Positions 1 to 35,296 of a stretch of DNA of 39,573 nucleotides are shown here, piece by piece; the stretch's first letter is position 1, and every line of letters begins with the position of its first letter. The translations under genes and the position numbers were made by a program. Under the pieces are notes generated by a model that saw only the letters and a list, made by a program, of their open reading frames with translations, was not told where the DNA came from and ran no database searches. The stretch is from an uncultured Bacillota bacterium (GTDB lineage: Bacteria > Bacillota > Clostridia > Christensenellales > UBA1242), in assembly GCA_900545735.1 (NCBI GenBank), contig URAC01000002.1:1-39573 (forward strand), read 5' to 3'.

Positions 1-48
1 TCTACACGAGCCTTATCGTCGGCAGCGTCAGATGTGTATAAGAGACAG
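1..48. other. Illumina Nextera library adapter (technical, not genomic): P5 tail TCTACAC + 8-nt i5 index GAGCCTTA + TCGTCGGCAGCGTC + 19-bp transposase mosaic end AGATGTGTATAAGAGACAG
   Basis: The string matches the Nextera Read-1 transposase adapter as I remember it. Genomic sequence starts at 49. Confidence 0.97.
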
Positions 49-53: not shown

Positions 54-60
54 AAGGAGG
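54..60 (+). promoter_or_regulatory. Shine-Dalgarno site AAGGAGG for giant ORF1
   Basis: AAGGAGG lies 5 nt upstream of the ATG at 66. Confidence 0.85.
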
Positions 61-65
61 AAACT

Positions 66-134
66 ATGAAAAAATTTGCCAAAATATGTACCTTTTTAAT
101 TTTAATTTTATGCGGAGTTGTTTTTGCTGCTTGC
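66..134 (+). other. Lipoprotein signal peptide with lipobox (VFAA|C, Cys23) of ORF1
   Basis: Basic N-terminus (MKKFAK), hydrophobic core, then the A-A-C lipobox followed by GNTSS. Confidence 0.8.
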
Positions 135-3100
135 GGAAACACATCATCAACCCCAATATTATCTTCAAGCGAAAATAATGTTGAGTTAATAATAGGTACA
201 GACGAAAGTAAATCTTTTGATGTTACTTTGTCTAATTATGGCAATGGCAGTGATAGTGTAAGAGTGGAGTCTTATGAGAATAATAAGATTATTGAATTAT
301 CAACTCAAAAAATAGGAGATGGAAAAACAAGGGTTACTTTAAAACCTCTTTATCCTGGAAATGCAACTATCAAAGTTTCTTCTATAACCCATAACGCAAA
401 ACCTATTGAAATATCAGTTAAGGTCATTTTGCCAGTTGGCGATATTGAATTTAATAAAGATTTAGAAAACTCAATCTATGTGATCAAAGGCGAAAGTGTA
501 GATTTTGAAAATTTAGATTTAATTAATTATCTTCCTATTTCAACGGGAGATCCAAATTTAGATGGAGTCAAAACAAATCAAATTGGCGTTACATACACTC
601 TTGAAAATGTTTTGACAACAGATGGTGTTCAACTTGAAAACGGCAAACTTGTTGTTTCAAGTGATTGTGCGTTAAGCGAAGTTGAAGTTAGGGCAACATC
701 AATTTACAATGCTGAAATTTCAAAAACATTTAAAGTTAAAATTTTAAATCCAATTTCCAGCATAGTTTATATTGATGGAAATAAAGTTTTTGAAAATGGA
801 AATTTAGTTGATGGCAGCGGAAATAGTTATGCTTTTGAACTCTATCCTAGAGAAAGCGATATAACAGTAAGTCAAAAAGATGTGCTTTTGTTTGTCAAAG
901 CAGGTTCAGAAGCGGAAGTTATAAAAGTTGAAAAAATCTTTGATGAGAGCAAATATTCAGTTGAATTAAAATCTTTAACCTATGAAGATGGCGTGTTTAA
1001 ATACACCTACACAATTTCAGCGCTTAATGCTGGATATTTGGAAAATATCTCATTTAAAATTTCATACAAAGATTACACTTATGGCGAAAATGAAAAGGAT
1101 TATTATGTTGAAAGCGGAAATTTAAGCGTTGCAACATACAATTTGCCAAATTCAGTTTTAGTTAATGGAAATTCAAGCACAGAAAGTGGGCTTGATATTC
1201 TTGTTTTTGAAAACATAGCAACAATTTCAAAAGGAACCTTGCTTGAATTTACACTTTCTCCATCAAATTTGGCTCCAGAATATGAAACAATTAGATTGTG
1301 GGCAGCAAGTTATGCTAATTGCCCAATAAGTTTTTATAAACTCAATTCAACAAGAACAAGCTATGAACTTGTCTATGGCTATCCAAGAGATGCAAAAGAT
1401 GGAAGTCAATTTGTTTGCACAGGAATTGACCAAAACGGCAACGCATATTTTGATATGCCTATTGGAACAAAATTATATGTTGTAAAAAATCAAATGTTTG
1501 ACAAGGTTGATAACACAAACGCAACACTTTTTGCGTCATCTTTGAATTTTTATAATCTTGGCCTTGAAAGAAGCAAAATTCAACTTAATGTTAAAGTTAA
1601 CCCAGGGGCAAGTTCAGTTGATAGAGCTGAATATGATGGAACAAACTTCACAATCATCAATTCTAATATAATTGTTACAGAATTTATCGATAGCGTTGAA
1701 TTATATCTCGCTATTGCTCCACAAAACTTTGATATCGGCACTTCTTCTATTGTTAAACTTAAAAATTCCAACATTGCTGATGTTTCCGAGTTAAAAGTTA
1801 TAAGCAAAGATGACAACTATGTTTATGTTAAATTCACCTTAACTCCAAAGAAGTTGGGTGCTACAAAATTGACTGTTTATCTCTGCGATGGCTTTGAAAA
1901 GGAATTTGAATTAAAAGTTATCTCAACTCTTGATAATATTGACATTACTGTAAGCGATGAAACAGAAAGCATTGTTGATTATAAGGAAACTTTGACTGGA
2001 AAAATCAACGAAATTGACGAAAATAGCGTTACAGTTCAAAAATTGGCGTTCAAGAGCGGCACAAGCATTCAACTTGCAAAAACTGCTTATCCAATTTCAG
2101 CGGAATATATCGTTGAATATTCTTTCTATGATTTAGCAACTATAAAAACGATTTCAGAATTATCCATCAAAGAAATTTTTGAAGATGCAAGTTTTAACAC
2201 TACTTCAAACATTTTAAATGTCGATACTTTATCAAACTATTCAATTATTCAGGCGAAAACATCACAAAGTGAAGGAAAAACGCTTATCAAAGTTGATGTT
2301 AAAGGAAGATTGGCAACTGGTGAGGGCTATGAAGAAGAGGCTTCACATACTTTCTATTTCTTAATTGAAATCTATAAAGGCGTTGAAAATTTTGATATTT
2401 CTTCAAATGTTCACGAAATTTATTCCTATGACACTTTAGGCGATAGAAACGCTGATAAATCTTTTGCAGAATTTACTGTTACATTGCTTTCAAAGTTTGG
2501 AACTCCAACATATTTAAATTCTCTCGAACTTTATTATGGTGTTGGTGCGGAATCTCCTATTGAATTTAATGAAGCAGGAAGAGCGGTTGTTAAATATAAC
2601 GATAAAGATGTTTTAGTTTTGACAAGGTCTTTAAGTGGCAATGTTTGGACATATCGCGTTCAAGCATTGACAGCAGACATACAAAATTATGTTTTTGTGC
2701 TTAAACTTGTTGAAGTTGATGAAAGCAAAATTTTTGGCGGCGTAGTTCGCGTTATTGTAAAAGAAGCTGTTGAAATAACAGATATTGAAATTGTAAATGT
2801 CGACTTAGAAAATGGCATATATTTGGAAAATAATACTTTAAATGAAGAGGAAGAAGGCCCAACTTTTGAAATAAAATATAATATTTACACAAAAGATGGC
2901 TCAGAGCCTTTAAATTCTGGGTTGGAATTTGAATTATCAAGCAATTTGTCAATGCTTGGTGTAAAAATCGACGCACAAGGGAAAATAACAGTTCCAGCAG
3001 GCGTTGGCGGAAACGGCAGAATTTTAATCTATCCATCAAGCAACTATTTTGCGTCTTCAAATGGAATGAAAGATGGCGAAAAACCTTTCATTGAAATTCC

Positions 3101-6100
3101 TATATCAATCGCAAATGGTGAAAGCGAAGAAACGGCAATTAGAATTGATAGTCAAGAAAAAATAAAATATTTAAAACAAAATCCAACAAAACACTATCTT
3201 TTAGTTGGAGATTTTAGCATTTCTGAAACTATTAGCGAATTTTCAGGCGGACTTTATGGCTTACAAAGTGGAAAAACTTCAACACTTACATTAACAAGCA
3301 CAATGTTTGAAAAATTAACAGGAATTGTTAAAAATATCAACATAATTGGCGAAATTAACGCTCAAAATGCAAATTTAGGCGCAATTTGCTATGAAAATTA
3401 TGGAAAAATTGAAAATGTTAACGCAAGCGGCTTAAAAATTTCAAACACAGAAGCTGGCTCACATACTGGTGCGTTGGTTGGTGTAAACTATGGCGAAATT
3501 TTAGGCGGCGAAATTGTTGCAACAGTTAAGGGCGTTAATGTTGGCGGCGTTGCAGGGCTTAATGGCACAAAAACTGAAAATGAGATAACTTTCACAGGAA
3601 AAATAGAAAATGTAACTTTTGCCGGAAATATCACTGCAAGCGGAAATGCTGGCGGAATTGTTGCAGAAAACAACGGCGAAATTTCAAAATGTAAAGTTGA
3701 AAAATGGAGCAATAATCAAAGTGCATTTATAGCAGCAACATCTGATGCAAACGGCTTTATCGGCGCAATCGCAGGTGTTTCAAGCGGAAAAATCAGCCAA
3801 ACTTATGCTTATTCTTACAATGACACAATGTATGATATAACTGCAACAGCAAATGTTGTTATCGGTGGTCTTGTTGGTCAAGTTTCTGGTGGCACAATTA
3901 CAGAATGTATGACCAATTTCTCGCTTGAAGGCACTCAAATTGGTGCGCTTGTTGGAGAAATTACTAGTGGAAGCGTTAATAATTCATACACTTTAAGCAA
4001 AATTTCAAGAAGCAGTGCAAGTGCTTTGGCAACTGATGGAGCAGATAAAATTTCCTACTCCTATTCTCGCGCATACTATGTAGATGGTGAAACAACTACA
4101 TATTTATCACAAGCAGGTGGAACAAATGTGTATTGTGCTGGAGATTATACAAGTTTAGATAGCTTTAATTTGGCTTTACAAAACAACTTATCTAACACCA
4201 GTCTTTGGGAAACTGATTTATCAACAAATAACAGAATCAATCAAGGGGCGGCATATTTAGTTAATGCAAACCCACCAAAAGCAGTTTCATCAATAGAAAT
4301 CAATATTAATGAAGCGGGCAAAACAAAATATTTATATACTCAAGAAGATGGCAAAACGAATATCGTTTTATACTATTATCAATTACTTGAAGAATTGACT
4401 GACGGCGTTGCAAAAGCCGAATTAGCAAGATTAAATTCAATTTCTTTGGAAAATTTGTTTGGAGAAAACAATAATTTGTTATTCAATGTGATTTCTTCGA
4501 CATCAATATCTTTTGTTGGTAACAACATTAAGATTTTAGGCGTTGGCAAAACCGAAGTTAAAGTTACATCAAAATATGCAACCACAACTTGCCAAGAAGA
4601 AACTATAACATTCTATGTAATTTATCCAATTCAAGATTTCAACTTGTATCGTGGCTCTTCAGCGTTAAATCCTTCAACAATAGTTAAAGATGGCGATGTT
4701 GACCAAGTTGGAATGTCTAAAACTGAAACTTATTCTTCAAAAGTTAAGTCAACAGTGCTTTTGAATGGTCAAAATTATTCAATTTTTACAAATTTATTTG
4801 CTATTGGCTTTGAAATAAGAGCAAATAATAGTGCACCAAGTGTTTTAGGCGGAATTTCTTCAATTTATGATAAGAGTAATAATGAAGGAACTTTTGATGA
4901 TAATTTCACTTTTGTATCTGAAGGAACATACACAATTACGCCAAAAAATTATAATTTTGCAACCGATGAAGATGAAAAATTCTCTATTAATTCAATATTA
5001 GTTTTACAAAATAACGGAATTGGCACATATTTAGGAAATATCTCCGAATTTGCTGATTTTGATGTAATAAATAAGTTAATTTCACAAAATTTCAAGAAAA
5101 ATTATGAAATAAAAGTTGTTAGAGGCGCTAGTCGAATCCAAACAACTTTAACAGATAGCGAACTTTCACCATCAAATGTATTAAATTTTGATGTTGTTGC
5201 TATTTCAGATAAAAAACAAGAAAGCCTTATTATTGACATTTATGAAGGCGATGAAATAGTCGGCTCTTCAAAAGCAGCAGTAGAAAACGCAATTTTTGAT
5301 GTAAATGTAAGCCGCGTTAATTCAGTTGAAAATAACCATTATTTCAATGTATTTATCTCTGTTAAATCAGATGTTAGAAAGACAATTTCAACGACAAGAC
5401 AATTTGCAATAAAAATTTATGACGAAGATAAGAAAGTTGTTTCCGTTTTAAATTTGACATTAATTCCACAAGAAGTTGTAAGCATTTCAAATTCTCATTA
5501 TGCAGCAAATAACGAAGTTGAAAGCGGATTTTCAATTAACACAACTCCAACATCAGTTTTAAGACCTGGCAAAAACGGACTTCTTGCAATAAACTTATAT
5601 CCAGAATATGCTGCTTACAGCAAAATCGAAATTGAAAGTGCAATAATCAATGACAATTATTATGTTTTGTTTGAACAAATGGTCGCAAAAGAACAAAACA
5701 ACTATCAAAATGCTAGCGGAATTATTGGATATTCTTCAGAGCGCGACACAAACAAACTTACAATCTATTATTCAGACCAACTTGCAAATGACGGTGGAAT
5801 GGTCTATGTAAGAACAAAGATTATTGAAAGCGTTCCAGATGGAGTGTATTTCCCAATTACAATCAAAGTTTATCCAGCAGACGAAACAAAAGAGATTAAA
5901 ACATCAACTTTTGTTCTTGCTTCTGAAACAATCAACAAAGCACAAATTACAGTTGACGGCAAGAAAGATGCTGTTGTTTCTCGTGGAAATTCAACAGAAT
6001 TTGAAATTTCAGTAAATGAAGACCAAGAATTAACAGATATTAGAGTTTTAAATCACGATAAAAATAGTGAGGATAATTGCGATTATATCAATTTGATTTA

Positions 6101-9100
6101 CAACCGCACAGAATATGAAATTTCAAACGGCAAGAAAATTTATAAAGGCATAATAAATGTTGGCTTAAATGCTGAACTCAATGGCGATGGCGTTGTAAAA
6201 ATTCAAACCATAATGAGGAAAACAATCAATGGAAAACTTGAAGAAGAATATGATTCAATAACTTTAAGCATTGTTGATTTCACAATAGATGGAATGTATA
6301 TAGAGGGCAATCAAGAAGATGACAATGTTTTTGTTGCACCAATCCAATTAAGGCAAGATATAACTTTTGGCTTTAAGTTATCAAAAACTCCAACATATAA
6401 CAGTTCTAACTTATTAGAGAAAGCAGCAGTTGAGAGAATTGAAAGCAACAAGGCAATGTTTCTTAAAAATATTGCTTTAAATGTTGAATATAGTCAATAC
6501 TTATACGCAATCAACAAAGATTTAGTTACATTTAAAACTGACGATGTAAATAATGGCTATTCAAAAGACATTTCAAACACTGAAAACAAAGCAAATATCG
6601 CATACAGTTTGTATTATAAGAATACAAATTCTAAATATTTTGATGAAAATGGCGTTAAAAATTCAAATAATTACTTTGATATTATTATTGATAAAGATGA
6701 AAGCGATAAACCTTTATCATCAAGGACTTTTGCAATCAATGGTCTAAGAACGGGAACAATTCCTATGCAAATTAAAATTGCATATGCTCTTCCAAGCGAC
6801 CATAATGTAACGAATTATTTCACTTATGATTTTGCAATCAAAGTTCAAACTTATGAAGATGAAGACACACCAATAGCAATCACAAACGAAGAAGAATTTA
6901 TTAGATATATGAATGCAACCACAACAGAAAGTGGCGAGCCTGCAAACTATATCTTAATGAATGATTTATACTTGACTGATTTTACTCCAATAGCAAATAC
7001 TGAAATGATTGCTTCGTTAGACGGCAATAATAAGATAATTACAATAAGAAACTTCAATATTTCATCAATGTTGAATAACAATGCAAATCAAACATTGAAT
7101 TTGGCATTGTTCCAAACAGTTGGAGAAGACACAACACTTAAAAATTTGACAATCAATTTATATGAACTTGAAGACATCATAATTGATGAAGAAAAAGTTT
7201 CAAATGTCAATGCAGCGGGCTTGTTTATAGACAACTATGGAATTATTTATAACTGCGAAGTTACAGCATTGAACCTTTGGAAAGCTTACAACAGTGAAGT
7301 GCTTGCAAGCAAGGGCATTTCAACTATTGAACAAGAAGATTTGAATAAATCTTACAAACCAGCAACTTATTCTGATGGATATGGAATAAGAGTATATTTC
7401 AGTGCTGAAAATATCGGAAAATTGAAAAAAGATAGCACTGTTGTTCAAATTGCTGGATTAGGAATCAAAAACTTTGCTGCAGGAAGAATTACAAACAGCC
7501 GTGTCGGAAACACAACATTTACAAAAGTATTTATGACAAGCGTTGCAAATAATCAATCACAAGATTATGTTATAACGGCGGAACATTTAACATTATTAGG
7601 TCAAGCGGATATCGCAGGCGTTGTTTTAAGCAACGAAGGCGTTATTGCATCATCCTTCTTCTCAAATGGATATATTACCAATTTGTCAGTTTCTGGAACA
7701 GCATCTAAAACTGCAGGATTTGCAATATATAACGCTTATGGCGGAATTATCACAGGAAGTTATGTAAAATCTTTCAAAAAAGCATCAGAATTGAACGGAA
7801 AATTCTATACTGATGGCGGAATTTATTCAGAAGGAATATCTGCCGGATTTGTTTATGAAAATAGTTCTGAAATAACAGATTGTTATGCAAATCTTCTCTT
7901 AGGCGGCAGTTTGTCAGGAAGGTTGGTTTCTGGCTTTGTATATTCAAATACAAATTCTGGAAATATTGAAAGATGTTATTCAGCAGCAACAATTACAGGA
8001 AAATTGACAACTAGAATGCCTTTCTCTGGCAATAATGCCAAAGGCGATAGTATGCAACTTGGAAAATTGACAAATTGCTATTATTTTGTAACAAATTATG
8101 ACTCTGAAACGCTTCTTGAAGAAAAATATTCTACTGGCGCTTATGCAATATTGGCATCTTTGGTGGATAGAGATTTGTTATACGGATTTGCTTACACAAG
8201 CGATTCAAAATCGTTAGAAGGTTCTTCTATTGACGGCGTTTGGAGATATACAAATGGTGAAATTAACCTTTCATCAGCAAACAGCGTTGCAATTTCAGTT
8301 AGATATTTGATAGAGAACTATAACGGAGTTGAAGGCTCAAGAAGATTCCCATATGTTAATGAATATAAGTATGGTTCTAAAAATAATCCAATTATAATTA
8401 GAACGGCAGATGAATTTAATAGGGCGTTTGGTCAAGAAACAAACTTAAAGGAAAACGCTTATTATGCCATAAGTCAATTCTACAACAAGAATGACGGCAC
8501 AGTTTTTGGAAATTATAGGCTTGTTTCACATATTGATTTCAACAATGTTGTAAATATTGCTTCAACAAAAATTGCTTCTTCATTGATGGCATTAACTGGA
8601 AAATCTAACATCGGTGGATTGTTTGACGGCAACGGCTTAACAATTTCTAATATCGAAATTGCTTTAAGTGAACAAGAAAATGTTGGATTGTTTGGTCAAG
8701 TTATCAACGGAGCAGTATTTAAAAACGCAAATTTAACAGTAAAACAAGTAAATGCTGGTAATGGTGTTAATGTTGGCGGTGTTGCAGGTCTTGTATCTTC
8801 TTCATCACTTATCAATATCAGCCTTGAAGCAACAAACTTAAAAGGCGAAAATCGTTCTGAAATCAACGGAAAGAATGTTGTTGGCGGAATTGCAGGTCTT
8901 GTTCAAGGTGATTGCAAATTGTCCAATTTATCATCTTCAATTTCCGTTATCTCAAACTATCGTGGGGAAAATGAGTATAAACGCGGACAAATAGATTGTT
9001 CAAATTTAAGTTATGCAGGCGGAATTGCAGGAATTATAGACATCTATAAAACAGCAGGCGAAAGTTCGGTTTCAGTTGATTACGCTCAAGTCAACAAATT

Positions 9101-19478: not shown

Positions 19479-19495
19479 ATTTAGACAATTAGAAG

Positions 19496-19502
19496 AAGGG
19501 AG
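19496..19502 (+). promoter_or_regulatory. Shine-Dalgarno site AAGGGAG for giant ORF2
   Basis: Lies 8 nt upstream of the ATG at 19511. The ORF1-ORF2 spacer is only 32 nt and has no hairpin. Confidence 0.8.
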
Positions 19503-19510
19503 AAATTAAC

Positions 19511-19585
19511 ATGAAGATAAAAAAGTTTATAGTATTGATTCTAGCATTGATTATCGGAGTAATTCCGATGGTCTTTGCTGGTTGC
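19511..19585 (+). other. Lipoprotein signal peptide with lipobox (VFAG|C, Cys25) of ORF2
   Basis: Basic N-terminus, hydrophobic core, then F-A-G-C followed by GGVD. Confidence 0.8.
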
Positions 19586-22500
19586 GGAGGAGTTGATACT
19601 AACAATCTTTCAATTAAAATGATAACGGAGGCCGATAGCATAGAAGATAACTTGCAAGTTATCAATCTATCTGTTGATGATGCACGAAATTTGATATTTG
19701 AAATTGAAAATTGGCAAGATGGAATAAGTGCCGGTGTTATTTTCTCCACAGATTCTAAGGCTGTTGTAATTTCTAACCAAAAATATTTGTCAGATGGAAG
19801 AGTTCAAATTACTGTAACTGCCAAAACGGGCGGCAGTGCATTGATAACCGCAACAACTCAACAATATTCTAAACAGACAAGCATTTTAATTAGGATTTCA
19901 GAAAACATTTCAGATTTCAATTTAAAAAATAATGTTGGAACAATTTATTATGAAAAGGGTTCTGAACTAAAATTAAATGTTGAAGAATTATTTAATTTTT
20001 CACCTAGCAGCACAACGCAAAGAGATTTAAAAGCATATATTGGGGAAAACCTCATCACAAACGAACAAGGAGAAAATATAATCAGTGGACTTGAAGAAGA
20101 CACCACAATAACATTTGTTAGCGATTATTTAGACGGCATTTCAAGAAATTTATTTGTAAAAGTTGTTGAAAAACTCGCTAGCGAAGATATACAACTTGAA
20201 AAGCAGGTTTATTCAAACTTAGGCGAAAGTTCTTATGAACAAATTGTTAATGGAGAAACAATCCAAATTTTAAAGAATAACAATGCAAAATCCATTGATA
20301 ATGTTGACATCGCACACAATCAAAGGTTAATAAGATTGACATTGAACTGCAATCAACCTGATTTGAAAGTTAAAGCGGTTGTTTACACCAAAAATGGCGA
20401 AAATTGGGTAAAAAATGAGTTATTGGTTGCAAACATTGTTCAAAATGGCTCATTGACCGACGGAAAATATGAACATATTTACAGTGTTGAATATGCTGGA
20501 TTTAATGAAATGAAAGTTGTGTTCACATATTCAATCGGAGAACATAATTACGAAACATATAATGAAATATATTTTGAGTGCGTTGAAGCGCCATTAAATT
20601 TATCTATCAACAAAAACACTTCAAGCAGCCAAGAAATCACTATTTACGACCCAACGGAAGGCTATATCGGCAAAAGTTTAACTTTTATGGTCTATCCTGA
20701 AAATTGCGTGAATTTTAACATAAATTTGTTGCTAGATGCCAATGCTGACAGCATTTTGAAGATTTTAAATTCAAAAGGAAATGAGAAAGCAAGAGAGTCA
20801 GCAACTGATTTAGGATATTCAAGCAAAGTTTCAATTTCTAATGGGGAAACAATTAGAATTTCAGCAAATAATGCAATAGATTTCAAATATGTTGATGTTA
20901 TTGTTCAAGTTAGATATCAATTTGAAAATGTAACATACGCGTTTGAATATTCATTAAAAGTAAATATAAAACGCTCTCCAACAGCAATGATTGTTACAGA
21001 TGACAAATATGTTAATGGAGAACTAAGCGGAACCGTAACTCAATTTGAAAGTTATATATTTGATTTAAACACTGGCAAAGTGTTAGATGAAAATGGCAAT
21101 TTGATAGATAATTTTGGCAAAAACAGTTTAAAACTTTATGTGTATGCTGAATTAGATGGCTTATTAGAAAACGACCACGATTTTGTTATTGTAAACAATC
21201 TTGGAATAATAGATGTAAAAAACACTGAAGATAACGAAATTTTGATTGAAGCAAAAGATGTAGGAACGGGCAGTTTTACAATCGTTTTAGACAATGGAAT
21301 GAGAAAGGTTTTCAAGGTTGAGATAATCAAATCTCTAAGCAAATTGGAATTATCTTTTCCAACCCCAACTCAAAATTCAAACATCTATTTAAACACGATA
21401 AGCAAAACAGAAGGTTATTTGTATGACATAATTGCATTAACTGGGGCAAAAATTCCACCAATTATTGTAAAAACTGGAAATACAATAAATTATAATTATG
21501 AAAATGACAATTTAGATTATACAAACGGATATATCATAGGCAAAAATGACACTGATGATTTTGTGGATTGTTCGTTTGTTGTTACTCATTATTATTTAGA
21601 TAGTAATAATATTAAACAAGTTAGAACAACAACATATAAATTTAAAATAATGTTCTATTCACAAATCACGAATTTTGCTTTGACAACAAATAAAGGTTCA
21701 ACAAATTTTGATTTATATAATTTGAATAATGTTGGCTATTATTCAGAACAATTAGCAACAGCGGTTGTAACTTTAAATGTTGGACCAGATGCCCTTAGAG
21801 AAAAAATACTTGAAAAAGTAGAATGGCATTCAAACATTGATTGGGACACAGAAGATTATGATGGAAATTTAATTAAATATTCCAATAAAGTCTTTTCATT
21901 CACATTTAATAAGTCAACGGGAACAGGAACAATCATTTGTAATGTTGTTGAAAGATATTACGATGAAGAAGTTGGCGAGTATAAAAACACAGGCTATATT
22001 GATGAAAATGGCAATTTTACATTAGGAAAAATTGTTCTTACAGCAACAATCAATAGAGAGCAAGGCGGCAAAGAGTTAGACAACCTAACAAAAAGCGTTC
22101 AATTTGATGTTGTAAACAACAAGCCTGTTGAAGAAATTGTTTCAAGTATGGACAGCATCAGCATTGATAGATTTAAAGGTGATATGTACATATACACAAC
22201 TGTCTATCCAGTTACGGCAAGCAACAAGCAATTAAGGGCAGTATTCATTCCTGAAGATTTGAGTTATGCAAACGCAATTCAATTTGAATGGGAAGGAGAT
22301 AAGTTAAAAGTATCGCTTGACGAAAAGTATGAAAGCGGAAAAGGAATTATTAGATTAATTGCAATCGATAGTTATTCAAACTCAGACACATTCACAACAT
22401 ATCTTGATATTCCGTTAGTAATCTGCGATGGAAGTGAAGAGTATCCATTCCAAATTATGTCTGAAAAAGACTTGCAAATAATGATTGATACAAATTTTGA

Positions 22501-25500
22501 AAAAAATTATCAAATTATTGGCGCCATTGATGTTTCAAAATATGTTGATATTAACAATAGTTCAATTTGGCAATATTCACAATATGTTCTAACTGGCAAC
22601 ATTATTGGCTTAAACAATGCGTGCTTGACTGGCATTAAAATAACAGGAGCATCAAACACAAATTCCTATGGCTTGTTTGCATCTATTGCAGAAGGCGCAA
22701 GCATTAAGAATGTTAAATTTGAAGGCGAGATTAACTTAAATTTCGCAACTGAAGAAGCCAAAATATCTTATGAAACTATAAATATTGGCTTAGTTGCAGG
22801 AATTAACAACGGGATTCTTGAAAATATTTCAGTTGCTTTAAATGCATCTTCAGTAACAGCAAACTTTGGCTATTCAATTTATATTGGCGGCGTTGTTGGC
22901 ACAAACAATAAAGAAATAATTGTAAATAATAATGCTAATTATAATAGACTTGTAGATTTTAAAGGCGAATTTGCCTTTAAAGATAATTCGCCAAGCAACA
23001 CTTCTTCTCACTTGTTATATGTCGGTGGCGTTGCAGGTTATAATAGTTGGAAAATCATTAGTGAATTAGAAAGCAACACGATGCTTGTTAATGTTAATTA
23101 CAACTTAAAATATATTTTAGCATCAGAAGAAGATATTATAAGAGGCAATAAGTTGGGCGACCAAGAAGGCATTGGAGGCGTTGCAGGATTATCTAAACTT
23201 GGAAGTTCAAGCACTGAAAGCGGACTTGGAATAGTAGGAGTAACTGTTGAAGGCTCTATAATCGCTGGTCAGTTTGAAAATAATAAATTTATAGGACATT
23301 TCAATAATGTTGGAGGAATTGTTGGAAACAATTCGTTAGACATTAAAAACAGCAATTCTCAACTCTTCGTTAGAGGCAGAGAAAATGTTGGCGGCGGAGT
23401 TGGACTTAACTTGGGCGGAGATTTGTTGGAAATAAAAGTCCAAGCATTAGAGAAAAACGACAACACATTAATTATTGGCAATAACAATGTTGGCGGCATT
23501 ATTGGACAATTTGCCGATGGAACAATAATAAAATCCACATTTATAAGCTATATTTCAAAGGAATTTATTTCAGAATATGACGGCGATATTGTCATAAATG
23601 ATGCGGACATTACTCAAACTGGAATAAATGCAGGAAGAATTGTTGGATTGTTTAATTACAATATTGGAAATCTAAATTATGTTGTTGCGATTGCAAATTT
23701 GAAAGCAGACTGCGAAATCAACTTGCAAATTACTGCAATTACAGATGAAAACATTGTAATTTATGGCAATAAGTGCATCAACAATTCAACAGAAGCAGGA
23801 AATTATATAAATGAAGAATTTTTGAATAAATTAACTGCAAGTCAAAGCCATGGCTTGACTTTGAATGGAATCGACTCGCTAGACAAATTTATTTCAAAAA
23901 TTGTTGAATATGAAAATTGGGCAAATGACAATAAAGAAACAAAATTAACTTCTTTCATAATTTTGCCACCAACACAAATTGATAAAACATTAACTGAAGA
24001 AGGTCAAAAACAAGCACTAACAAGCAATAGTGGCAGCGAACTTGTGTTCTATCTTGAACTTCATCAAAAAGCAGATGGAACAATTTCAGAAGAATTCAGT
24101 TTGTTAAATAGTTATGATATTAGCAAATATATTTCAGTTAAGGCAAATTCAAACACAAATCTTGTTTTCACATCAAGCGATGAAAACATATTAAAAATTG
24201 AAGACGGCAAATTTATCGTTGTAAGTCCTGGGCTTGTTAAAATCTCAGCAACAAGCGAATTTAACACAACTTTGTCAACTGACTTCTATATTTATGTTGT
24301 TAGACACGTTGAAGATTTTAAAGCATATAGAAATGCAGATAGAGAAACAAATCAATTAACTTCTGGAACTTATGAAGTTTTAGACCAAGGCACAAGTTAT
24401 ATGATTTATTTCAAATATTTGGACAAATTTAATGTAAAAAATTATTTCGAAAGCCAAGAATTATTAGTTGCGTTAAAGATTGGCGATAAAGTCATTTATG
24501 CTGATGGAAATATTGACTTAGTAACAGGTTTAAGATTTACAAGAATTTCAAGTGAAGCATATCAATTAACTGGAACAAATTTAAGTGAAACATTTAATGA
24601 CATTTCATTCATTTATTATTATAAAGTTACAGTCAATGAAAATGAATATTTAATACAAAATTGTTTTGATAATGTTAAAACTATTAATTTTAAATATAAA
24701 GTTATAAATGAAACCAAAAAAATCAGCGTTTCGGACCCTGAAATTGAAGTTATGCCTTTTTATCAGCCAAATGTTGATGTTTCATTGATTTCACAAAATA
24801 AAAATGAAACTATAACAATTTTGACATATTTGATTGGTGAAAATGGAGCGCTTAGTACCGCAACAAACCTAAGATATAAAATTTGGCTAAACAATGTTTT
24901 ACAAACAAATCCTTTTGAAATAGATGCAACAGAATATAAAAATTTCACTTTGGAATTTTACTTAGATGAAACTGATAGAAACTTGACTTCTGATTTGAAA
25001 TTCAAAGTGGTTATTAGAACATCAAACAATTTAGAAACAAGCGTTTTAATCACATTTAAGCCACAAAAGCCAAATGATATAACAATCAATTTGTATCCAC
25101 AAAAGAGCAATTTAGATGATGAAGTTATTTCAATTCCTGATGGCGAAATGTTCTCATATATTTCATCAAACAAGATTGTCCCAGGAGCAAATTCATTGTT
25201 GGAATTTATAGTCGTTCCTGCCTACACAGATTATGATTACATTTTGATTAGAAATTCAAACAATAATGAATATAAACTTGTTTTTGAATTGTATGATAGA
25301 ACAACAAATAGGGCGATTTTAGGCTCACAAGATGTTGAAGGCGGAATAAAAGTTTTGAAATCTGCTGCACAAGATGGAACATTTGAATTGAGAATTTTCT
25401 TAGATTCAAGAGTTGCAGATATGTCAACAGTTTCGATAGAGATTGATGTGATCAAAAACGAAGAATCCGTTTTGACAAACAAAGTTATTAAAACATTTTA

Positions 25501-28500
25501 TGTTGAGCAGTTGCCAGGCGTAAAAATTGAGATAGACGATGTTTTAAGCGGAAATGAAGAGGAAGACCCATTAAGATTGGCTCTTGGCTTGGAATATCCA
25601 ATGAATGTTATAATCAAGGGCTATGAAAGCGGAACATTAACTTTTGACCAAGCAACAAGCACTTATAGCGATGGCGAATTAAGATTTGTATTGTCAAACG
25701 CATCGCTTGCTAAGATTGTTAAAAATTCAGATGGAACATACAGTTTAATGGTCAATAAAAATATAAACAATGTTGGAAAATTGACGATTACAACTTATGG
25801 AGAAAAGGTTACAGCAACTGGCATTAAAAAGAGTGCAGAAGTTCAATTTTATATTGATATTGTAAAATTTGTTGTTAAATCTTCAGTTAATGGCTCAATA
25901 ATCAAAGAAATTGACAATGGCGTTATCTATTCTGCAGTTGGCAACACATACACTTTTGAAGCAACTTTGAATGATGAAATTTTGATATATGACAAAACAA
26001 ATCAAGAAATTATCAATTTGGTTGAAAACTTCTTAAAGAATTTATCAAGTTATTCAAATAATTCGTGGTTTGTTAAAGACATAAATCAAGTTTATTATGG
26101 CTGGTCACAAATAACTCAAGAAGGATTTAAAAAATATGAAACTTTAACAAATCAAGCCTTTGAAGTTAGAGTAGACAATGGACAAATTAAAATAGTGTTC
26201 AAAAAGGTTCAAAGGGCAGATAATCCATCATTGTTATTCAAGTTTGAAAACACATTCTATTATAAAGATGGATTGCCAACAGTTGGAAAAGTTGATAATC
26301 AACCTTATTTTGCATTGATAGAAGAATTCAAGTTTGATGTTGCTGAAAAGACAAATATTAGAAATCCTTATCCAATTTATAAGGTTGAAGAATTCTTAAA
26401 TATGCGTGAAGGCAATTATTACATTTTGATGAATGATATCGAATTGCCAAAAGATTTCACTCCAATAACAACATTGATTGGCGGATTTGATGGAAACAAC
26501 TACAACATCAAATTGCCTGCTGGATTGGAATATAAAAACACAGGCAATAATCAAACATTCAATTTTGGCATATTTGAAACTATTGCAGAAGGCGCATTGA
26601 TTGCGAATGTAAGGCTTTATGTTGAAGGTGAAATCACTATTGATTTGTCCAGTTATCCAGTTGTAAATTTTGGATTGCTGGCAGCAAATAACTATGGCAC
26701 TATAACAAATTGTGCTATTGCAGGTTCAACATATGCACATATAATTGTTAATGTAACTGACTCAGTTAATAGTTCAGATGAACCTAATAATATTATCGCA
26801 GGCTTTGTTGCAACAAACGGCGCAACAGGCGCAATAACAAATTCTAGAGTTGAAGTTTCTATAACTTCAAAAGGCAATGTCGCTGGATTTGCTTATACAA
26901 ATAGCGGCACAATAGCTTCTTCTTATGTCTATGGCTCTATTGTTAATAACACAACTTCAACAAACTCTAAAACGGCAGGCTTTGTTGGAATAAATGAATA
27001 TGGCGGATTATTGTTTACAAGTTATATTGCGGGAGATTATGAAGGCGAGCATCAATTTGCCACAAGCGATAGCAAGGTTGTTTATACAGCCCATAGAATT
27101 GGCGCATTTGTTTACTTAAACAATGGAAAAATTTCAAATTGTTATGCAAATATACCAGTAAGTTCGGCAGCAAGTCGTGCAAGTGGATTTGTATATAACA
27201 ACGAAAAGAGCGGCGAGATTGAATATTGCCTATCAACTTGCAAAATGACAAACAATAGAAACTCACACACATCATTTATTGGAAGGTCGGCGGATTCTCT
27301 ATTGAATAAGGGCAAAATTATAGAATGTTTTGCGCTGGAAGATGCAGTTTTAGGATTTACTCTTAATGGAAAAGAAGTAAAAGTCACATTTGCAAATAAC
27401 GCCCTTGGTTCAAATGATAATATTTCTGGCTTAACAATTTTAAGGGCAACATTTACGGGAGGAAGTGCAGGAGGCAGCGACTATTATTATGATGATAATG
27501 GTGTTTCTCAAAAAATAAGTTCATCAGAACCAAAACTTTATGACAGTTCAGATTTTGTTGTTTGGTCTAACGAAAAATTAGCAGACCCTAAAACATTTGC
27601 AAAATTTGCTTTGTCAAACGATAGTACAAACACTAATGGAGTTTGGTTCTTTGCAAAATCAGTAAGCGAACAAGCGTATGAAAAGGACGGGGTCTATCTT
27701 GTATTAAAAACAAAGCGTCCAGAACTTGTTGCTCCAAATTTGATTGTAAGCGGACATCAAGAATTCTCGCATACTTCACTAGATGAAGAAACTGGCGAAA
27801 CGATATATCATTATATCTCCGCATCGAATTTAGGAACCTTGCATAATCCATATATAATTGCAAGCGTGGAAGATTTGGAAGCCATAGCAGAAAACAGCAA
27901 CAATTTAGTTGGCGAAGATAAAAATTATAGGCTTGTAAACAACATCATTTATGAAACGGGAACGATTTCAAGCAAGTTATATAAATATTATTTCTTAGGC
28001 AATTTGGAAGGAAATAGCTTCACAATCGGCAATTATGTTATAGACTCTTCTGAAAATTTAGAATATGCAGGATTCTTTGCAGGAATCGGAAGCAAACTCA
28101 AACAGATGGGTTCTGTTAAAAATGTTCAGTTTGCGCCAAAATATATCAATCTTCCAAATACAAATTCAGTTGGTGCTGTAGCAGGTGCAATTTTTGGAGC
28201 AAACATTATAAATGTAAGCGTTGATGGCTATGAGTATGATAATGAAGGCATTGTAATTCTTGGCAAAAACGCGGTTGGCGGCGTTGCTGGAATTGCGTTG
28301 GGAAATTATCAATTAAACAATATAAATTCTAACATTTCAGTCAATGCAACATATAGAGCAAAATTAAGCGAGCACGATGTTGAAATATTTAATGAATTTA
28401 ATACGAATGTAGTTTCACACGCTGGTTTAATAGTTGGCGCTGCTGGCGGATATGGAAAAATTGATTATATGTATGCTGGCGGAGATAATGTTGTAATTGG

Positions 28501-29383
28501 CGAATGCACTGGATTTATGTTCGGAAACTTAGGCAAGAATGTTGTTGCTAACAATTTGCAAGTAAAACAAAGTTCAAAGCAATCGATAAAATCAGATGTC
28601 TATGCAGGCGTTATCGCAGGTGTAAGTGCAGGCACATTGTATGATATTGTGATTGACAAGAACGAAATAAGTAAAAATTCATTCTTTGCAGATTCAATCT
28701 ATATTCCTATCGCTCTTGGCAATGTTGTTGGAAAGATGACAGGCGGAAGCATAACAAAAGCAAAAATTAACACAACAACTTATGTTCCTAGCGGAATAAC
28801 TTTCGTTGGTGGGGCAGTTGGAATTATGGAAGATGGCACATTAGATGATGTTGTCATTACTGGAAACATTTCAGCAGGCGAAGTTATTGGCGGCGTTGTT
28901 GGATATGTCGGAAAGGTTGATGCCAAAGGTTATACTAGCAATGTAACAAGAAATGCGTTGTCTTCTAGCAGCAAAGTTGAAATTAAAAATTCTTACTTAG
29001 TTGGTGATATCAATTCATCTTCATCAACGAATGAAGTCAGAGTTGGAACAATCGCTGGTGTGGTCAACACAAACAATTCAATTTATGTTAAAGGTTTATC
29101 TGGCGATGAAACTTCACAAGTCAAGATAATATTTACAAAAAACTTATCATTTAAAAATACAATTTCAATTAGCAATTATTCCTATAATTCAACTGCAATA
29201 TCAATTAGATATGGAATAGTTACATCAAGAATTAATGATATTGATAATCAAATTTTATATGAACATAATGAAGAAAATAAAGACAAATTCTTGTATATTG
29301 AAAAACCTATGATTTATCAAATCAATTCTGCTAGTGGAAAAGTAACAGTTAATGGGAAGTCTTTTGAAGAATGGAATAAATAA
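19511..29383 (+). CDS. Giant surface lipoprotein, 3,290 aa, paralogous in architecture to ORF1: BIG2-like stretches + 3 GLUG modules, no Flg_new array
   Basis: Uninterrupted 9.9-kb ORF with SD and TAA stop. N-terminus MKIKKFIVLILALIIGVIPMVFAGC has a lipobox at Cys25. BIG2-like strings are present (QITVTAKTGGSALITATT, ILIEAKDVGTGSFTIVL, FIVVSPGLVKISATS), with GLUG motifs in three blocks. Confidence 0.9.
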   Translation: MKIKKFIVLILALIIGVIPMVFAGCGGVDTNNLSIKMITEADSIEDNLQVINLSVDDARNLIFEIENWQDGISAGVIFSTDSKAVVISNQKYLSDGRVQITVTAKTGGSALITATTQQYSKQTSILIRISENISDFNLKNNVGTIYYEKGSELKLNVEELFNFSPSSTTQRDLKAYIGENLITNEQGENIISGLEEDTTITFVSDYLDGISRNLFVKVVEKLASEDIQLEKQVYSNLGESSYEQIVNGETIQILKNNNAKSIDNVDIAHNQRLIRLTLNCNQPDLKVKAVVYTKNGENWVKNELLVANIVQNGSLTDGKYEHIYSVEYAGFNEMKVVFTYSIGEHNYETYNEIYFECVEAPLNLSINKNTSSSQEITIYDPTEGYIGKSLTFMVYPENCVNFNINLLLDANADSILKILNSKGNEKARESATDLGYSSKVSISNGETIRISANNAIDFKYVDVIVQVRYQFENVTYAFEYSLKVNIKRSPTAMIVTDDKYVNGELSGTVTQFESYIFDLNTGKVLDENGNLIDNFGKNSLKLYVYAELDGLLENDHDFVIVNNLGIIDVKNTEDNEILIEAKDVGTGSFTIVLDNGMRKVFKVEIIKSLSKLELSFPTPTQNSNIYLNTISKTEGYLYDIIALTGAKIPPIIVKTGNTINYNYENDNLDYTNGYIIGKNDTDDFVDCSFVVTHYYLDSNNIKQVRTTTYKFKIMFYSQITNFALTTNKGSTNFDLYNLNNVGYYSEQLATAVVTLNVGPDALREKILEKVEWHSNIDWDTEDYDGNLIKYSNKVFSFTFNKSTGTGTIICNVVERYYDEEVGEYKNTGYIDENGNFTLGKIVLTATINREQGGKELDNLTKSVQFDVVNNKPVEEIVSSMDSISIDRFKGDMYIYTTVYPVTASNKQLRAVFIPEDLSYANAIQFEWEGDKLKVSLDEKYESGKGIIRLIAIDSYSNSDTFTTYLDIPLVICDGSEEYPFQIMSEKDLQIMIDTNFEKNYQIIGAIDVSKYVDINNSSIWQYSQYVLTGNIIGLNNACLTGIKITGASNTNSYGLFASIAEGASIKNVKFEGEINLNFATEEAKISYETINIGLVAGINNGILENISVALNASSVTANFGYSIYIGGVVGTNNKEIIVNNNANYNRLVDFKGEFAFKDNSPSNTSSHLLYVGGVAGYNSWKIISELESNTMLVNVNYNLKYILASEEDIIRGNKLGDQEGIGGVAGLSKLGSSSTESGLGIVGVTVEGSIIAGQFENNKFIGHFNNVGGIVGNNSLDIKNSNSQLFVRGRENVGGGVGLNLGGDLLEIKVQALEKNDNTLIIGNNNVGGIIGQFADGTIIKSTFISYISKEFISEYDGDIVINDADITQTGINAGRIVGLFNYNIGNLNYVVAIANLKADCEINLQITAITDENIVIYGNKCINNSTEAGNYINEEFLNKLTASQSHGLTLNGIDSLDKFISKIVEYENWANDNKETKLTSFIILPPTQIDKTLTEEGQKQALTSNSGSELVFYLELHQKADGTISEEFSLLNSYDISKYISVKANSNTNLVFTSSDENILKIEDGKFIVVSPGLVKISATSEFNTTLSTDFYIYVVRHVEDFKAYRNADRETNQLTSGTYEVLDQGTSYMIYFKYLDKFNVKNYFESQELLVALKIGDKVIYADGNIDLVTGLRFTRISSEAYQLTGTNLSETFNDISFIYYYKVTVNENEYLIQNCFDNVKTINFKYKVINETKKISVSDPEIEVMPFYQPNVDVSLISQNKNETITILTYLIGENGALSTATNLRYKIWLNNVLQTNPFEIDATEYKNFTLEFYLDETDRNLTSDLKFKVVIRTSNNLETSVLITFKPQKPNDITINLYPQKSNLDDEVISIPDGEMFSYISSNKIVPGANSLLEFIVVPAYTDYDYILIRNSNNNEYKLVFELYDRTTNRAILGSQDVEGGIKVLKSAAQDGTFELRIFLDSRVADMSTVSIEIDVIKNEESVLTNKVIKTFYVEQLPGVKIEIDDVLSGNEEEDPLRLALGLEYPMNVIIKGYESGTLTFDQATSTYSDGELRFVLSNASLAKIVKNSDGTYSLMVNKNINNVGKLTITTYGEKVTATGIKKSAEVQFYIDIVKFVVKSSVNGSIIKEIDNGVIYSAVGNTYTFEATLNDEILIYDKTNQEIINLVENFLKNLSSYSNNSWFVKDINQVYYGWSQITQEGFKKYETLTNQAFEVRVDNGQIKIVFKKVQRADNPSLLFKFENTFYYKDGLPTVGKVDNQPYFALIEEFKFDVAEKTNIRNPYPIYKVEEFLNMREGNYYILMNDIELPKDFTPITTLIGGFDGNNYNIKLPAGLEYKNTGNNQTFNFGIFETIAEGALIANVRLYVEGEITIDLSSYPVVNFGLLAANNYGTITNCAIAGSTYAHIIVNVTDSVNSSDEPNNIIAGFVATNGATGAITNSRVEVSITSKGNVAGFAYTNSGTIASSYVYGSIVNNTTSTNSKTAGFVGINEYGGLLFTSYIAGDYEGEHQFATSDSKVVYTAHRIGAFVYLNNGKISNCYANIPVSSAASRASGFVYNNEKSGEIEYCLSTCKMTNNRNSHTSFIGRSADSLLNKGKIIECFALEDAVLGFTLNGKEVKVTFANNALGSNDNISGLTILRATFTGGSAGGSDYYYDDNGVSQKISSSEPKLYDSSDFVVWSNEKLADPKTFAKFALSNDSTNTNGVWFFAKSVSEQAYEKDGVYLVLKTKRPELVAPNLIVSGHQEFSHTSLDEETGETIYHYISASNLGTLHNPYIIASVEDLEAIAENSNNLVGEDKNYRLVNNIIYETGTISSKLYKYYFLGNLEGNSFTIGNYVIDSSENLEYAGFFAGIGSKLKQMGSVKNVQFAPKYINLPNTNSVGAVAGAIFGANIINVSVDGYEYDNEGIVILGKNAVGGVAGIALGNYQLNNINSNISVNATYRAKLSEHDVEIFNEFNTNVVSHAGLIVGAAGGYGKIDYMYAGGDNVVIGECTGFMFGNLGKNVVANNLQVKQSSKQSIKSDVYAGVIAGVSAGTLYDIVIDKNEISKNSFFADSIYIPIALGNVVGKMTGGSITKAKINTTTYVPSGITFVGGAVGIMEDGTLDDVVITGNISAGEVIGGVVGYVGKVDAKGYTSNVTRNALSSSSKVEIKNSYLVGDINSSSSTNEVRVGTIAGVVNTNNSIYVKGLSGDETSQVKIIFTKNLSFKNTISISNYSYNSTAISIRYGIVTSRINDIDNQILYEHNEENKDKFLYIEKPMIYQINSASGKVTVNGKSFEEWNK
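22438..23980 (+). repeat. ORF2 GLUG module A (approximate)
   Basis: Entry EYPFQIMSEKDLQIMIDTNFEKNYQIIGAIDV...YGLFASIAEGASIKNVKFEG, followed by IGGVVGTNNKEI, VGGVAGYNSW, IGGVAGLSKLG, VGGIVGNNSLDI, VGGGVGLNLGGDL, VGGIIGQFADGTI. Confidence 0.75.
26363..27740 (+). repeat. ORF2 GLUG-like module B (approximate)
   Basis: Entry NPYPIYKVEEFLNMREGNYYILMNDIELPKDFTPITTLIGGFDGNNYNI...FGIFETIAEGALIANVRL, followed by IAGFVATNGATGAITNS, VAGFAYTNSGTI, TAGFVGINEYGG, ASGFVYNNEKSGEIEYC. Confidence 0.7.
27841..29383 (+). repeat. ORF2 GLUG module C, C-terminal (approximate)
   Basis: Entry HNPYIIASVEDLEAIAENSNNLVGEDKNYRLVNNIIY...GNLEGNSFTIGNY...AGFFAGIGS, followed by VGAVAGAIFGANI, VGGVAGIALGNY, AGLIVGAAGGYG, VGGAVGIMEDGTL, IGGVVGYVGK, VGTIAGVVN. 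Confidence 0.7.
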
Positions 29384-29415
29384 AAGGAAATGCTCAGCAT
29401 TTCCTTTTATTTTTT
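29383..29415. terminator. Putative bidirectional intrinsic terminator between convergent ORF2 and the ABC permease
   Basis: 11-bp stem AAAGGAAATGC / GCATTTCCTTT (29383-29393 / 29397-29407) with a 3-nt loop, followed by TATTTTTT. It overlaps the stop codons of both genes. Confidence 0.7.
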
Positions 29416-31313: not shown

Positions 31314-31343
31314 AAAACAATTTAGTTGTCAAAAATCATACAT

Positions 31344-35251: not shown

Positions 35252-35262
35252 AGCACTTGCGG

Positions 35263-35296
35263 ACGGAGAACAGAAATGTTCTCCGTTTGTTTTTTT
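35263..35296 (+). terminator. Rho-independent terminator after tRNA-Arg
   Basis: 10-bp stem ACGGAGAACA / TGTTCTCCGT with GAAA loop, followed by TTGTTTTTTT. Confidence 0.85.

Follow-up and report, generated by a model that had tools for sequence, protein, structure and literature searches.

A tandem pair of predicted giant lipoproteins as putative surface fibres in a clade of uncultured gut Firmicutes

What use would an uncultured gut bacterium have for two adjacent genes encoding proteins of 6,470 and 3,290 amino acids (aa)? The question is raised by ORF1 and ORF2, two open reading frames (ORFs) at one end of contig URAC01000002.1 (assembly GCA_900545735.1), a stretch of 39,573 nucleotides (nt) from an uncultured Bacillota bacterium that we analysed whole and call the window. 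We think it somewhat better than an even chance that the locus is a two-gene operon of ancient paralogous giant lipoproteins that form long surface fibres and bind ligands. The positions of all features are given in Table 1.

An earlier note, made from the letters of the window, had described two giant, co-oriented and uninterrupted ORFs, each with its own Shine-Dalgarno site, separated by a spacer free of hairpins and closed by a strong terminator. Our analysis reproduces this layout. The coordinates agree with it, as does the folding energy of the spacer (19479..19510), which is 0 kcal/mol. The Shine-Dalgarno site of ORF1 is AAGGAGG, and that of ORF2, AAGGGAG, lies at 19496-19502, 8 nt 5' of the ATG. 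The terminator hairpin (29378..29412, -17.7 kcal/mol, then a U run) was missed by a simple consensus terminator scan; its z is -6.0, and none of 200 shuffled sequences was equally stable. It is probably also used by the convergent ABC-transporter operon. Judging from this layout, ORF1 and ORF2 are probably co-transcribed as one two-gene operon.

Such long genes call for evidence that they are intact, as the earlier note had taken them to be. A 6,470-codon open frame at 32% G+C should not be explicable by chance. Repeat collapse is no concern because repetitive DNA is nearly absent: there is one 57-nt array of tandem repeats across 29.5 kb, and repeats at the protein level are few. The window is 100% identical to locus L031 (ERZ28624436 scaffold_174) and 99.99% identical to L032 (ERZ653939 NODE_43), which possibly share a read set and may not be fully independent; both hold the exact ORF2, with a 6,470-aa gene called upstream. 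Exact copies of ORF2 stand on three contigs. Five more assemblies, from other samples and 98.1-98.6% identical, keep ORF2 open (called at 3,294 aa) and have the same downstream genes. The ratio of nonsynonymous to synonymous substitution rates (dN/dS) of ORF2 is 0.09-0.13 among five strains about 2% divergent, with 2,195 ORF2 codons available, showing that the frame is under purifying selection.

Several trivial explanations of the locus were rejected. Assembly collapse or chimerism is contradicted by the lack of repeats and by the recurrence of the same ORFs across other assemblies and strains. A single gene split by a stop codon does not fit the conservation, in about 15 species, of the signal peptide and Shine-Dalgarno site that belong to ORF2 itself. 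An alternative genetic code was discarded since all 63 Trp codons of ORF1 and ORF2 are TGG and in-frame TGA codons are absent. Phase variation at homopolymers was discarded since bases 1-29,500 hold no runs of A/T reaching 8 nt or of G/C reaching 6 nt. A prophage tail fibre was excluded on account of the housekeeping flanks and the conserved chromosomal position. The standard code, together with relatives labelled Clostridia or Firmicutes, also lends no support to the wall-less organism that the earlier note had entertained.

Both proteins begin with what appears to be a lipoprotein signal peptide. Their N-termini, MKKFAKICTFLILILCGVVFAAC/G and MKIKKFIVLILALIIGVIPMVFAGC/G, satisfy a rule in the style of PROSITE PS51257: a positively charged N-terminus, a hydrophobic core and the lipobox [LIVMFWSTAG]2-[LIVMFYSTAGCQ]-[AGS]-C, with the Cys at about residues 15-35. 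Each has 3 Lys or Arg within the first 7 residues, and the signals end in ...GVVFAAC (ORF1) and ...PMVFAGC (ORF2). Of the 25 complete homologues drawn from genome loci, some of them only about 25% identical, 24 keep the lipobox, and none of the full-length cluster representatives inspected lacks it. Apart from the signal peptides, neither protein has a hydrophobic segment. A motif scan of both found no LPxTG, and a C-terminal hydrophobic segment is likewise absent, which argues against a sortase anchor. The lipobox Cys of each protein (VFAAC, VFAGC) and the missing LPXTG, both read by eye before, are thus borne out. These features suggest that ORF1 and ORF2 are lipidated and surface-exposed.

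The two genes are related to each other. ORF2 aligns colinearly from end to end with aa 1-3334 of ORF1 (21.6% identity, E 6e-93), and ORF1 is therefore an ORF2-like body with a distal extension of about 3,100 residues. When 40 family members were compared over their N-terminal 1,000 residues by neighbour joining, as a rapid distance tree with no support values, ORF1-type proteins (about 5,000-6,700 aa) formed a clade apart from ORF2-type proteins (about 3,100-3,700 aa). As each clade spans many species, the duplication is old and both copies have been retained. The earlier note had attributed one shared architecture to the two proteins; their relatedness stands, but it consists in ORF2 being a colinear paralogue of ORF1's first half.

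The best-characterised parts of the chain are its modules. A profile self-comparison based on 18 ORF2-type proteins revealed that ORF2 holds three modules homologous to one another (probability 98%, E 1e-14 to 1e-16), with E 3e-16 between modules 1 and 3 and E 2e-14 between modules 1 and 2. Modules start with a cap motif of the type ...NPY.I....dL......Y.L..DI.L...F.PI....G.FDGN..., followed by GG[IV][AV]G-type rungs. In an AlphaFold model of ORF2 aa 2301-3290, built from a six-sequence alignment, modules 2 and 3 have pLDDT values of 70-95. A Foldseek search of the PDB with this model gave a top 50 consisting essentially of right-handed parallel beta-helix proteins, among them the PL6 alginate lyase 8bwk (best, E 5e-4), antigen 43, SPATE passengers and the HK620 tailspike. 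The IgA1 proteases of pneumococcus and Gemella (7uvl, 6xjb, 7uvk) matched with a probability of up to 1.0 (7uvl) at 13-14% identity. As modelled, ORF2 modules 2 and 3 are right-handed beta-helices. Hidden Markov models (HMMs) of the three ORF2 modules found the same three in ORF1, and weaker copies at aa ~3433-4021, 4409-4891 and 5241-5451. By this profile homology, ORF2 module 1 and the ORF1 modules are putatively assigned to the same fold.

Matches to domain databases are sparse. Pfam Glug (PF07581) matches ORF1 at aa 1157-1190 (23.9 bits) and aa 3122-3146 (26.7 bits), above the cut-off of 20.5. ORF2 has no match in Pfam or NCBIfam. The GLUG modules that had been proposed for both proteins are thus upheld by the Glug matches of ORF1 and by the beta-helix structures matched by the modelled ORF2 modules, but not by any Glug HMM match in ORF2. 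Peptidase_M26_N matches ORF1 aa 3391-3471 with 28.7 bits (cut-off 27.7), and only at positions 171-249 of a profile that is 250 positions long. HExxH is absent from both proteins and Pfam finds no peptidase domain in them, which speaks against membership in the M26 metalloendopeptidases, whose catalytic domain (Peptidase_M26_C) carries that motif. A metalloprotease was rejected on the absence of HExxH, and the scan agrees with the lack of a catalytic signature noted previously. The distinct C-terminal tip claimed for ORF1 is real: it consists of five stretches of Flg_new (PF09479; Listeria-Bacteroides, InlB B-repeat-like), scoring 105.7 bits against a threshold of at least 27 bits and tandem copies. 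NCBIfam adds just that repeat type (TIGR02543, 21.2 bits vs 20.95), and aa 5729-5874 repeat internally as aa 6180-6333. Flg_new takes up less than 10% of ORF1 and none of ORF2, which ends in a stretch of about 100 aa without a family match. No toxin family was matched in either protein (Pfam, NCBIfam), and the genes downstream are an ABC transporter and housekeeping genes, which argues against polymorphic toxins. Eleven of the 44 cysteines of ORF1 cluster at aa 4636-5048 (window ~13971-15209), including a Cys-Cys pair at aa 5047-5048.

For the regions outside the modules we arrive at a more cautious label than the BIG2-like stretches of the earlier note, namely predicted all-beta. No family was matched by ORF2 aa 26-974 and 1400-2282 or by the corresponding parts of ORF1. 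Big_2 (PF02368) has no match in ORF1 or ORF2 at E ≤ 0.01, and matches one of 16 homologues at E 0.04. Scattered sub-threshold matches of the ORF2 N-terminal region to Big_1, Big_2, Invasin_D3 and T2SS-T3SS_pil_N each occur in 1-2 of the 16 homologues. A model of ORF2 aa 26-1010 from a two-sequence alignment was unusable (pLDDT 36.7), with DSSP assigning nearly all of it to beta-strand. A profile search of the PDB with the N-terminal region yielded a single marginal match, the S-layer protein 4uid (E 0.019); the profile of the central region yielded none, and PDB sequence searches with ORF1 and ORF2 nothing usable. A faint internal repeat pairs aa 78-138 of ORF2 with aa 558-614.

We then asked how widely the pair occurs. 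When the N-terminal 1,000 residues were made into a profile for an exhaustive HMMER search, only 41 clusters were recovered among 1.84 billion representatives. Full-length members have 3,200-6,700 aa, and the match always starts at residues 25-35, directly after the lipobox. Every named homologue is a "hypothetical protein", in line with the earlier judgement that this is not a characterised system. A word-indexed search returned six "hypothetical" matches for the C-terminal third of ORF2, and none for its N-terminal 1,000 aa or for a 16-sequence alignment of that region. This index evidently fails to return giant proteins, as it missed the window's own and 70%-identical relatives. That the ORF2 N-terminus is an orphan was rejected, as the exhaustive HMMER search and a scan of genome contigs recover giant homologues.

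A pattern scan of one genome per species gave 28 loci, in gut metagenome-assembled genomes (MAGs) labelled Firmicutes, Clostridia or Christensenella. About 15 species-level MAGs show the tandem arrangement, in which a large ORF, cut by the edge of the locus, is followed after a short spacer by an ORF2-type gene of 3,100-3,700 aa; the synteny of the pair in related genomes, put forward earlier as a check, is therefore present. Others have single ORF1-type genes of 6,000-7,300 aa. The pair belongs to a small family restricted to a clade of uncultured gut Firmicutes. Its chromosomal context is conserved: rpoB directly follows the ORF2-type gene in 10 of the roughly 15 tandem loci, with rpoC after rpoB in nine. 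This adjacency was lost in the window's species and in UMGS1429, where a convergent ABC transporter and housekeeping genes lie downstream. On the other side lies a TtcA-like gene, transcribed divergently from the ORF1-type gene, in the window's species as in five distant relatives. The neighbouring genes include no secretion or glycosylation genes, as had been remarked for the window.

Some individual loci deserve mention. The pair lies about 200-600 nt upstream of rpoB in L005, L006, L008-L012, L017 and L018 (also in L001 and L002), with rpoC next where the contig reaches. In L001 1-10847 (JGI 3300038974), the ORF2-type gene appears as three consecutive ORFs (>736, 1,492 and 1,408 aa) colinear with ORF2, which could reflect gene fission, frameshifts or sequencing errors. 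L002 and L007 have shorter versions that may be truncated by contig ends, the frame reaching the contig start in L002 and beginning 41 nt from it in L007.

Divergence is uneven along the pair. In the closest species, UMGS1429 (L003), ORF2 is 70.5% identical and the C-terminus of ORF1 only 43.5%. Compared with its 6,677-aa orthologue P0007, ORF1 is 63% identical, with 66-87% over the first 3,300 residues and 42-63% beyond. The faster divergence of distal ORF1 is what one would anticipate of an exposed end confronted with changing ligands. A MAG of the related genus UMGS687 has 634 kb at 74% completeness (PMC8772591), which hints at genomes below 1 Mb.

These results lead us to the following scheme. 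Each protein would be exported by Sec, then diacylated and cleaved by Lgt and Lsp at Cys23 (ORF1) or Cys25 (ORF2), so that the N-terminus is tethered to the outer face of the cytoplasmic membrane. The predicted all-beta N-terminal region of about 950 residues would act as a membrane-proximal stalk, carrying the chain through and past the wall. Farther out would come homologous, capped GLUG-type right-handed beta-helix modules between long spacers without a family: three in ORF2, all of which recur in ORF1 before another 3,100 residues or so that hold at least three additional modules and the Flg_new tip. The outcome would be fibres of two lengths, about 100 nm and about 200 nm at full extension. 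The beta-helix faces and the Flg_new tip would most plausibly bind glycans or surface proteins of host mucus or of neighbouring microbes. The proteins have the length (6,470 and 3,290 aa) and the anchor (a lipobox) asked of fibrillar adhesins; the stalk role, the extended fibre shape and the ligand binding are what we infer from the architecture.

Several observations weigh against ligand-binding fibres. No homologue contains a recognised adhesive domain. About 60% of ORF2, in its N-terminal and central regions, has no fold assigned. The chain is not built of near-identical repeats as classical stalks are, and internal repeats other than the modules are barely detectable. The Foldseek search, run with a single 990-residue model that spans two modules, consequently gave modest E-values (best 5e-4). 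Finally, the low within-species dN/dS and the housekeeping neighbourhood (rpoBC in relatives) would also fit a structural role in the envelope. The pair could then be an S-layer-like coat or a spacer scaffold setting the surface architecture of the lineage, and not a set of ligand-specific adhesins. Both paralogues have indeed been kept since an old duplication, under strong purifying selection and at a conserved position beside rpoB-rpoC in most relatives and divergent from the TtcA-like gene. In the PDB, a profile of the N-terminal region matches only one S-layer protein (4uid, E 0.019), and some 29 kb is a large investment given the very small estimated genome of one relative (634-kb MAG, 74% complete, PMC8772591). 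Yet this S-layer match is marginal, and neither Pfam nor NCBIfam shows S-layer homology, cell-wall-binding or self-assembly domains. A lipid-tethered chain of 3,000-6,000 residues would be an unusual lattice former. The fast divergence of distal ORF1 and the variable size and number of the genes (split in L001; single genes of 6,000-7,300 aa) are more typical of interaction proteins. We therefore regard a coat as unlikely.

The fold of the modules leaves room for a surface-tethered carbohydrate-active protein, in which they would degrade polysaccharides as lyases, hydrolases or depolymerases, or would bind glycans non-catalytically in support of uptake. The best Foldseek match is after all the PL6 alginate lyase (8bwk, E 5e-4), many further ones are GH28, GH55, polygalacturonases and phage tailspike depolymerases, and sample names point to a gut habitat. 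This we consider quite improbable: Pfam and NCBIfam give no match to carbohydrate-active enzyme, pectate-lyase or Beta_helix families, and the match of highest probability is the non-catalytic GLUG beta-helix of an IgA1 protease (1.0, 13-14% identity). Moreover, the residues invariant among homologues are nearly all Gly and Asn with few rung-typical aromatics and no conserved acidic or basic cluster, and sugar-utilisation genes are not among the neighbours. A device for contact-dependent interaction or attack in a host-dependent epibiont or predator with a reduced genome, as proposed for giant proteins of ultra-small bacteria, would agree with the small estimated genome of one relative and with the 29 kb or so spent on the pair. 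A survey of giant genes ties them to predatory or epibiotic lifestyles (10.1101/2023.11.21.568195). It also lists uncharacterised gut Clostridia giants with Listeria-Bacteroides repeats, so that the general phenomenon is known (10.1101/2023.11.21.568195). However, the toxin, peptidase, SecA-like and multi-transmembrane features of those giants were not found in ORF1 or ORF2, and we give this explanation very little credence.

Long surface fibres that bind ligands thus remain our preferred explanation, and they can be compared with known systems. The closest concept is that of the Gram-positive fibrillar adhesins (Monzon and Bateman; SasG, Ebh, serine-rich repeat proteins), which are also very long secreted surface proteins with an anchor, a long rod and a beta-solenoid or other binding region, and which count Flg_new among their stalk domains (PMC9210967). 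ORF1 and ORF2 differ in having an N-terminal lipobox in place of a C-terminal LPxTG or wall-binding region, so that the polarity is reversed and the C-terminus is free; such an anchor lies outside the canonical types listed for fibrillar adhesins (PMC9210967). They also lack near-identical tandem repeats, carry several beta-helix modules along the chain and not one at the tip, and recognised stalk or adhesive Pfam domains cover none of ORF2. The closest genomic analogue is the Giant1-5 cluster of Apilactobacillus kunkeei, consecutive genes for extracellular proteins of 3,000-8,000 aa that take up several percent of a small genome, with signal peptides, beta-solenoid domains and a predicted elongated shape (PMC12863079). 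Those Giants, however, have an N-terminal beta-solenoid, rods of alpha-helical repeats and an SH3b-like C-terminal end, belong to a Lactobacillaceae lineage and are described without mention of a lipoprotein or lipobox; we set them against ORF1 and ORF2 by description (PMC12863079).

Other likenesses concern single parts of the proteins. The modules come closest in structure to the GLUG beta-helix found in M26 IgA1 proteases (ZmpA family; Streptococcus, Gemella), as indicated by Pfam Glug and the end of Peptidase_M26_N in ORF1 and by the matches of 7uvl, 6xjb and 7uvk to ORF2 models. Unlike these proteases, ORF1 and ORF2 lack HExxH and a peptidase, retain only about 80 residues of M26_N, use another anchor and are several-fold larger. 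The passengers of autotransporters and two-partner systems (Ag43, Hbp, EspP, SepA) are right-handed beta-helix fibres serving adhesion or aggregation, and match structurally. They are secreted by Gram-negative type V systems with a beta-barrel translocator, whereas ORF1 and ORF2 have no such domain and would rely on Sec and a lipid anchor. The tip of ORF1, with its five Flg_new repeats, recalls surface proteins with InlB B-repeats or Listeria-Bacteroides repeats, and an NCBI-style annotation would probably name ORF1 after this domain. ORF1 and ORF2 differ from all the systems compared in their predicted N-terminal lipid anchor with its reversed polarity, their non-repetitive sequence, the spread of several modules along the chain, the lack of any catalytic or wall-anchor domain, and their being an anciently duplicated and co-retained gene pair. 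We consider the pair a new, clade-restricted form of giant fibrillar surface proteins.

Table 1. Features of the giant-lipoprotein locus, in window coordinates.
Feature	Position	Strand	Details
Illumina Nextera adapter and i5 index GAGCCTTA, assembly artefact	1..48	.	Read from sequence; L039 upstream differs
ORF1 Shine-Dalgarno site AAGGAGG	54..60	+	5 nt 5' of ATG
ORF1, predicted giant lipoprotein, ORF1-type paralogue	66..19478	+	6,470 aa, ATG start, TAA stop, no internal stops
ORF1 predicted signal peptide, lipobox VFAA/C (Cys23)	66..134	+	Lipobox rule, hydrophobicity, homologues
ORF1 N-terminal region, aa 24-1019	135..3122	+	Paralogous to ORF2 predicted all-beta region; no family match
ORF1 putative beta-helix module 1, aa ~1020-1325	3123..4040	+	Module HMM E 2e-17; Glug aa 1157-1190
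ORF1 putative beta-helix module 2, aa ~2290-2675	6933..8090	+	Module HMM E 4e-34, 4e-20
ORF1 putative beta-helix module 3, aa ~2770-3210	8373..9695	+	Module HMM E 1e-38; Glug aa 3122-3146
ORF1-specific distal extension, aa ~3335-6470	10065..19475	+	No ORF2 counterpart
Extension, putative beta-helix region, aa ~3433-4021	10362..12128	+	Module HMM; Peptidase_M26_N-like cap just upstream, aa 3391-3471
Extension, beta-helix-like region, aa ~4409-4891	13290..14738	+	Weak module matches; sub-threshold Glug aa 4872-4895
Extension, putative beta-helix module with FDGNG cap, aa ~5241-5451	15786..16418	+	Motif, module HMM
ORF1 C-terminal tip, five Flg_new repeats, aa ~5728-6340	17247..19085	+	Pfam, TIGR02543, internal repeat
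Spacer between ORF1 and ORF2, unstructured	19479..19510	+	32 nt; contains ORF2 Shine-Dalgarno site
ORF2, predicted giant lipoprotein, ORF2-type paralogue	19511..29383	+	3,290 aa, ATG start, TAA stop, no internal stops
ORF2 predicted signal peptide, lipobox VFAG/C (Cys25)	19511..19585	+	Lipobox rule, hydrophobicity, homologues
ORF2 N-terminal predicted all-beta region, aa 26-974	19586..22432	+	DSSP; proposed membrane-proximal stalk
ORF2 putative capped beta-helix module 1, aa 975-1399	22433..23707	+	Profile self-comparison; rung motifs
ORF2 central spacer region, aa 1400-2282	23708..26356	+	No family match
ORF2 capped beta-helix module 2 (modelled), aa 2283-2612	26357..27346	+	AlphaFold segment residues 1-310, pLDDT mostly 70-90
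ORF2 capped beta-helix module 3 (modelled), aa 2775-3191	27833..29083	+	AlphaFold segment residues ~480-880, pLDDT ~85-95
Intrinsic terminator hairpin, 16-bp stem, 3-nt loop, then U run	29378..29412	+	-17.7 kcal/mol

The start of the contig is an artefact: TCTACAC, the i5 index GAGCCTTA and TCGTCGGCAGCGTCAGATGTGTATAAGAGACAG follow one another, with genomic DNA from about base 49 onward. Because bases 1-48 are adapter, the window lacks the ORF1 promoter region. The true upstream sequence is supplied by L039 (contig ULTC01062740.1, 4754-5691), where an AT-rich spacer of about 230 nt lies between ORF1 and a divergent gene. The product of this gene bears an SGGKDS PP-loop motif, on which we read it as a TtcA-like PP-loop ATPase. 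Promoter-like hexamers 5' of ORF1 in L039 are no more frequent than expected by chance. By coordinate arithmetic, the contigs of L031 and L032 also break off some 60-80 nt short of the ORF1 ATG on its upstream side; the assemblies may share a read set.

Parts of the remaining window vary among strains. The tRNA-Arg(CCT) gene at 35177-35251 (for comparison, L034 12876-19845 and L035 12726-12887) appears to be an integration hotspot, as the genes inserted behind it differ in other strains. L034 has a DEAD-box helicase there, and both L034 and L035 have NUDIX genes; L033 differs further downstream, with an integrase. Copies of about 160 nt of window 35231-35395 (the tRNA 3' end and about 140 nt downstream), at 94-95% identity, occur twice in L034 and once in L035. 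The 542 bp at 37014-37555, with an XRE-type helix-turn-helix gene (37008-37211, minus strand) and a gene for an 80-aa membrane protein (37286-37528), are a small strain-variable cassette, since about 37 nt stand there in L033 and L035. A 481-aa ORF rich in Asn, Lys and Ile (31326-32771) lies in a trough of 25% G+C and has no Pfam match; a 475-aa gene is called at its position in all related strains. At 37625-38740 an SPFH/Band-7 protein is fused to several zinc ribbons, and the next gene, for a double-zinc-ribbon protein, runs off the window. A KwaA-family (Kiwa defence) gene lies just beyond the zinc-ribbon genes in L033 and L035.

What would such fibres mean for these bacteria? If we are right, two surface fibres take up about 29 kb in an uncultured human-gut lineage, and if the window's species resembles the relative with an estimated genome below 1 Mb, the pair would be roughly 3% of its DNA. 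The chain has a design of its own, in which GLUG-type beta-helices alternate with long spacers without a family match or a known structure, and about 2,000 residues of each protein are apparently new fold space. The variable C-terminal end would point outward because the lipid anchor is at the N-terminus. Two practical lessons follow from the locus: word-indexed searches missed every giant homologue, and a biological-looking contig end turned out to be adapter. A bolder proposal sees the pair as a surface organelle that defines a clade of uncultured gut Firmicutes with small genomes: two lipid-tethered, essentially non-repetitive fibres of about 100 and 200 nm, inherited together ever since the old duplication, would act jointly. 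We hold this to be speculative and rather doubtful; if true, it would amount, for example, to a two-tier surface layer or to long-reach attachment to host mucus or partner cells, and to a route of fibre building distinct from sortase, type V, type I and pilus systems. For the organisms themselves, the pair offers a marker of the clade and a handle on how they may contact their host and neighbours.

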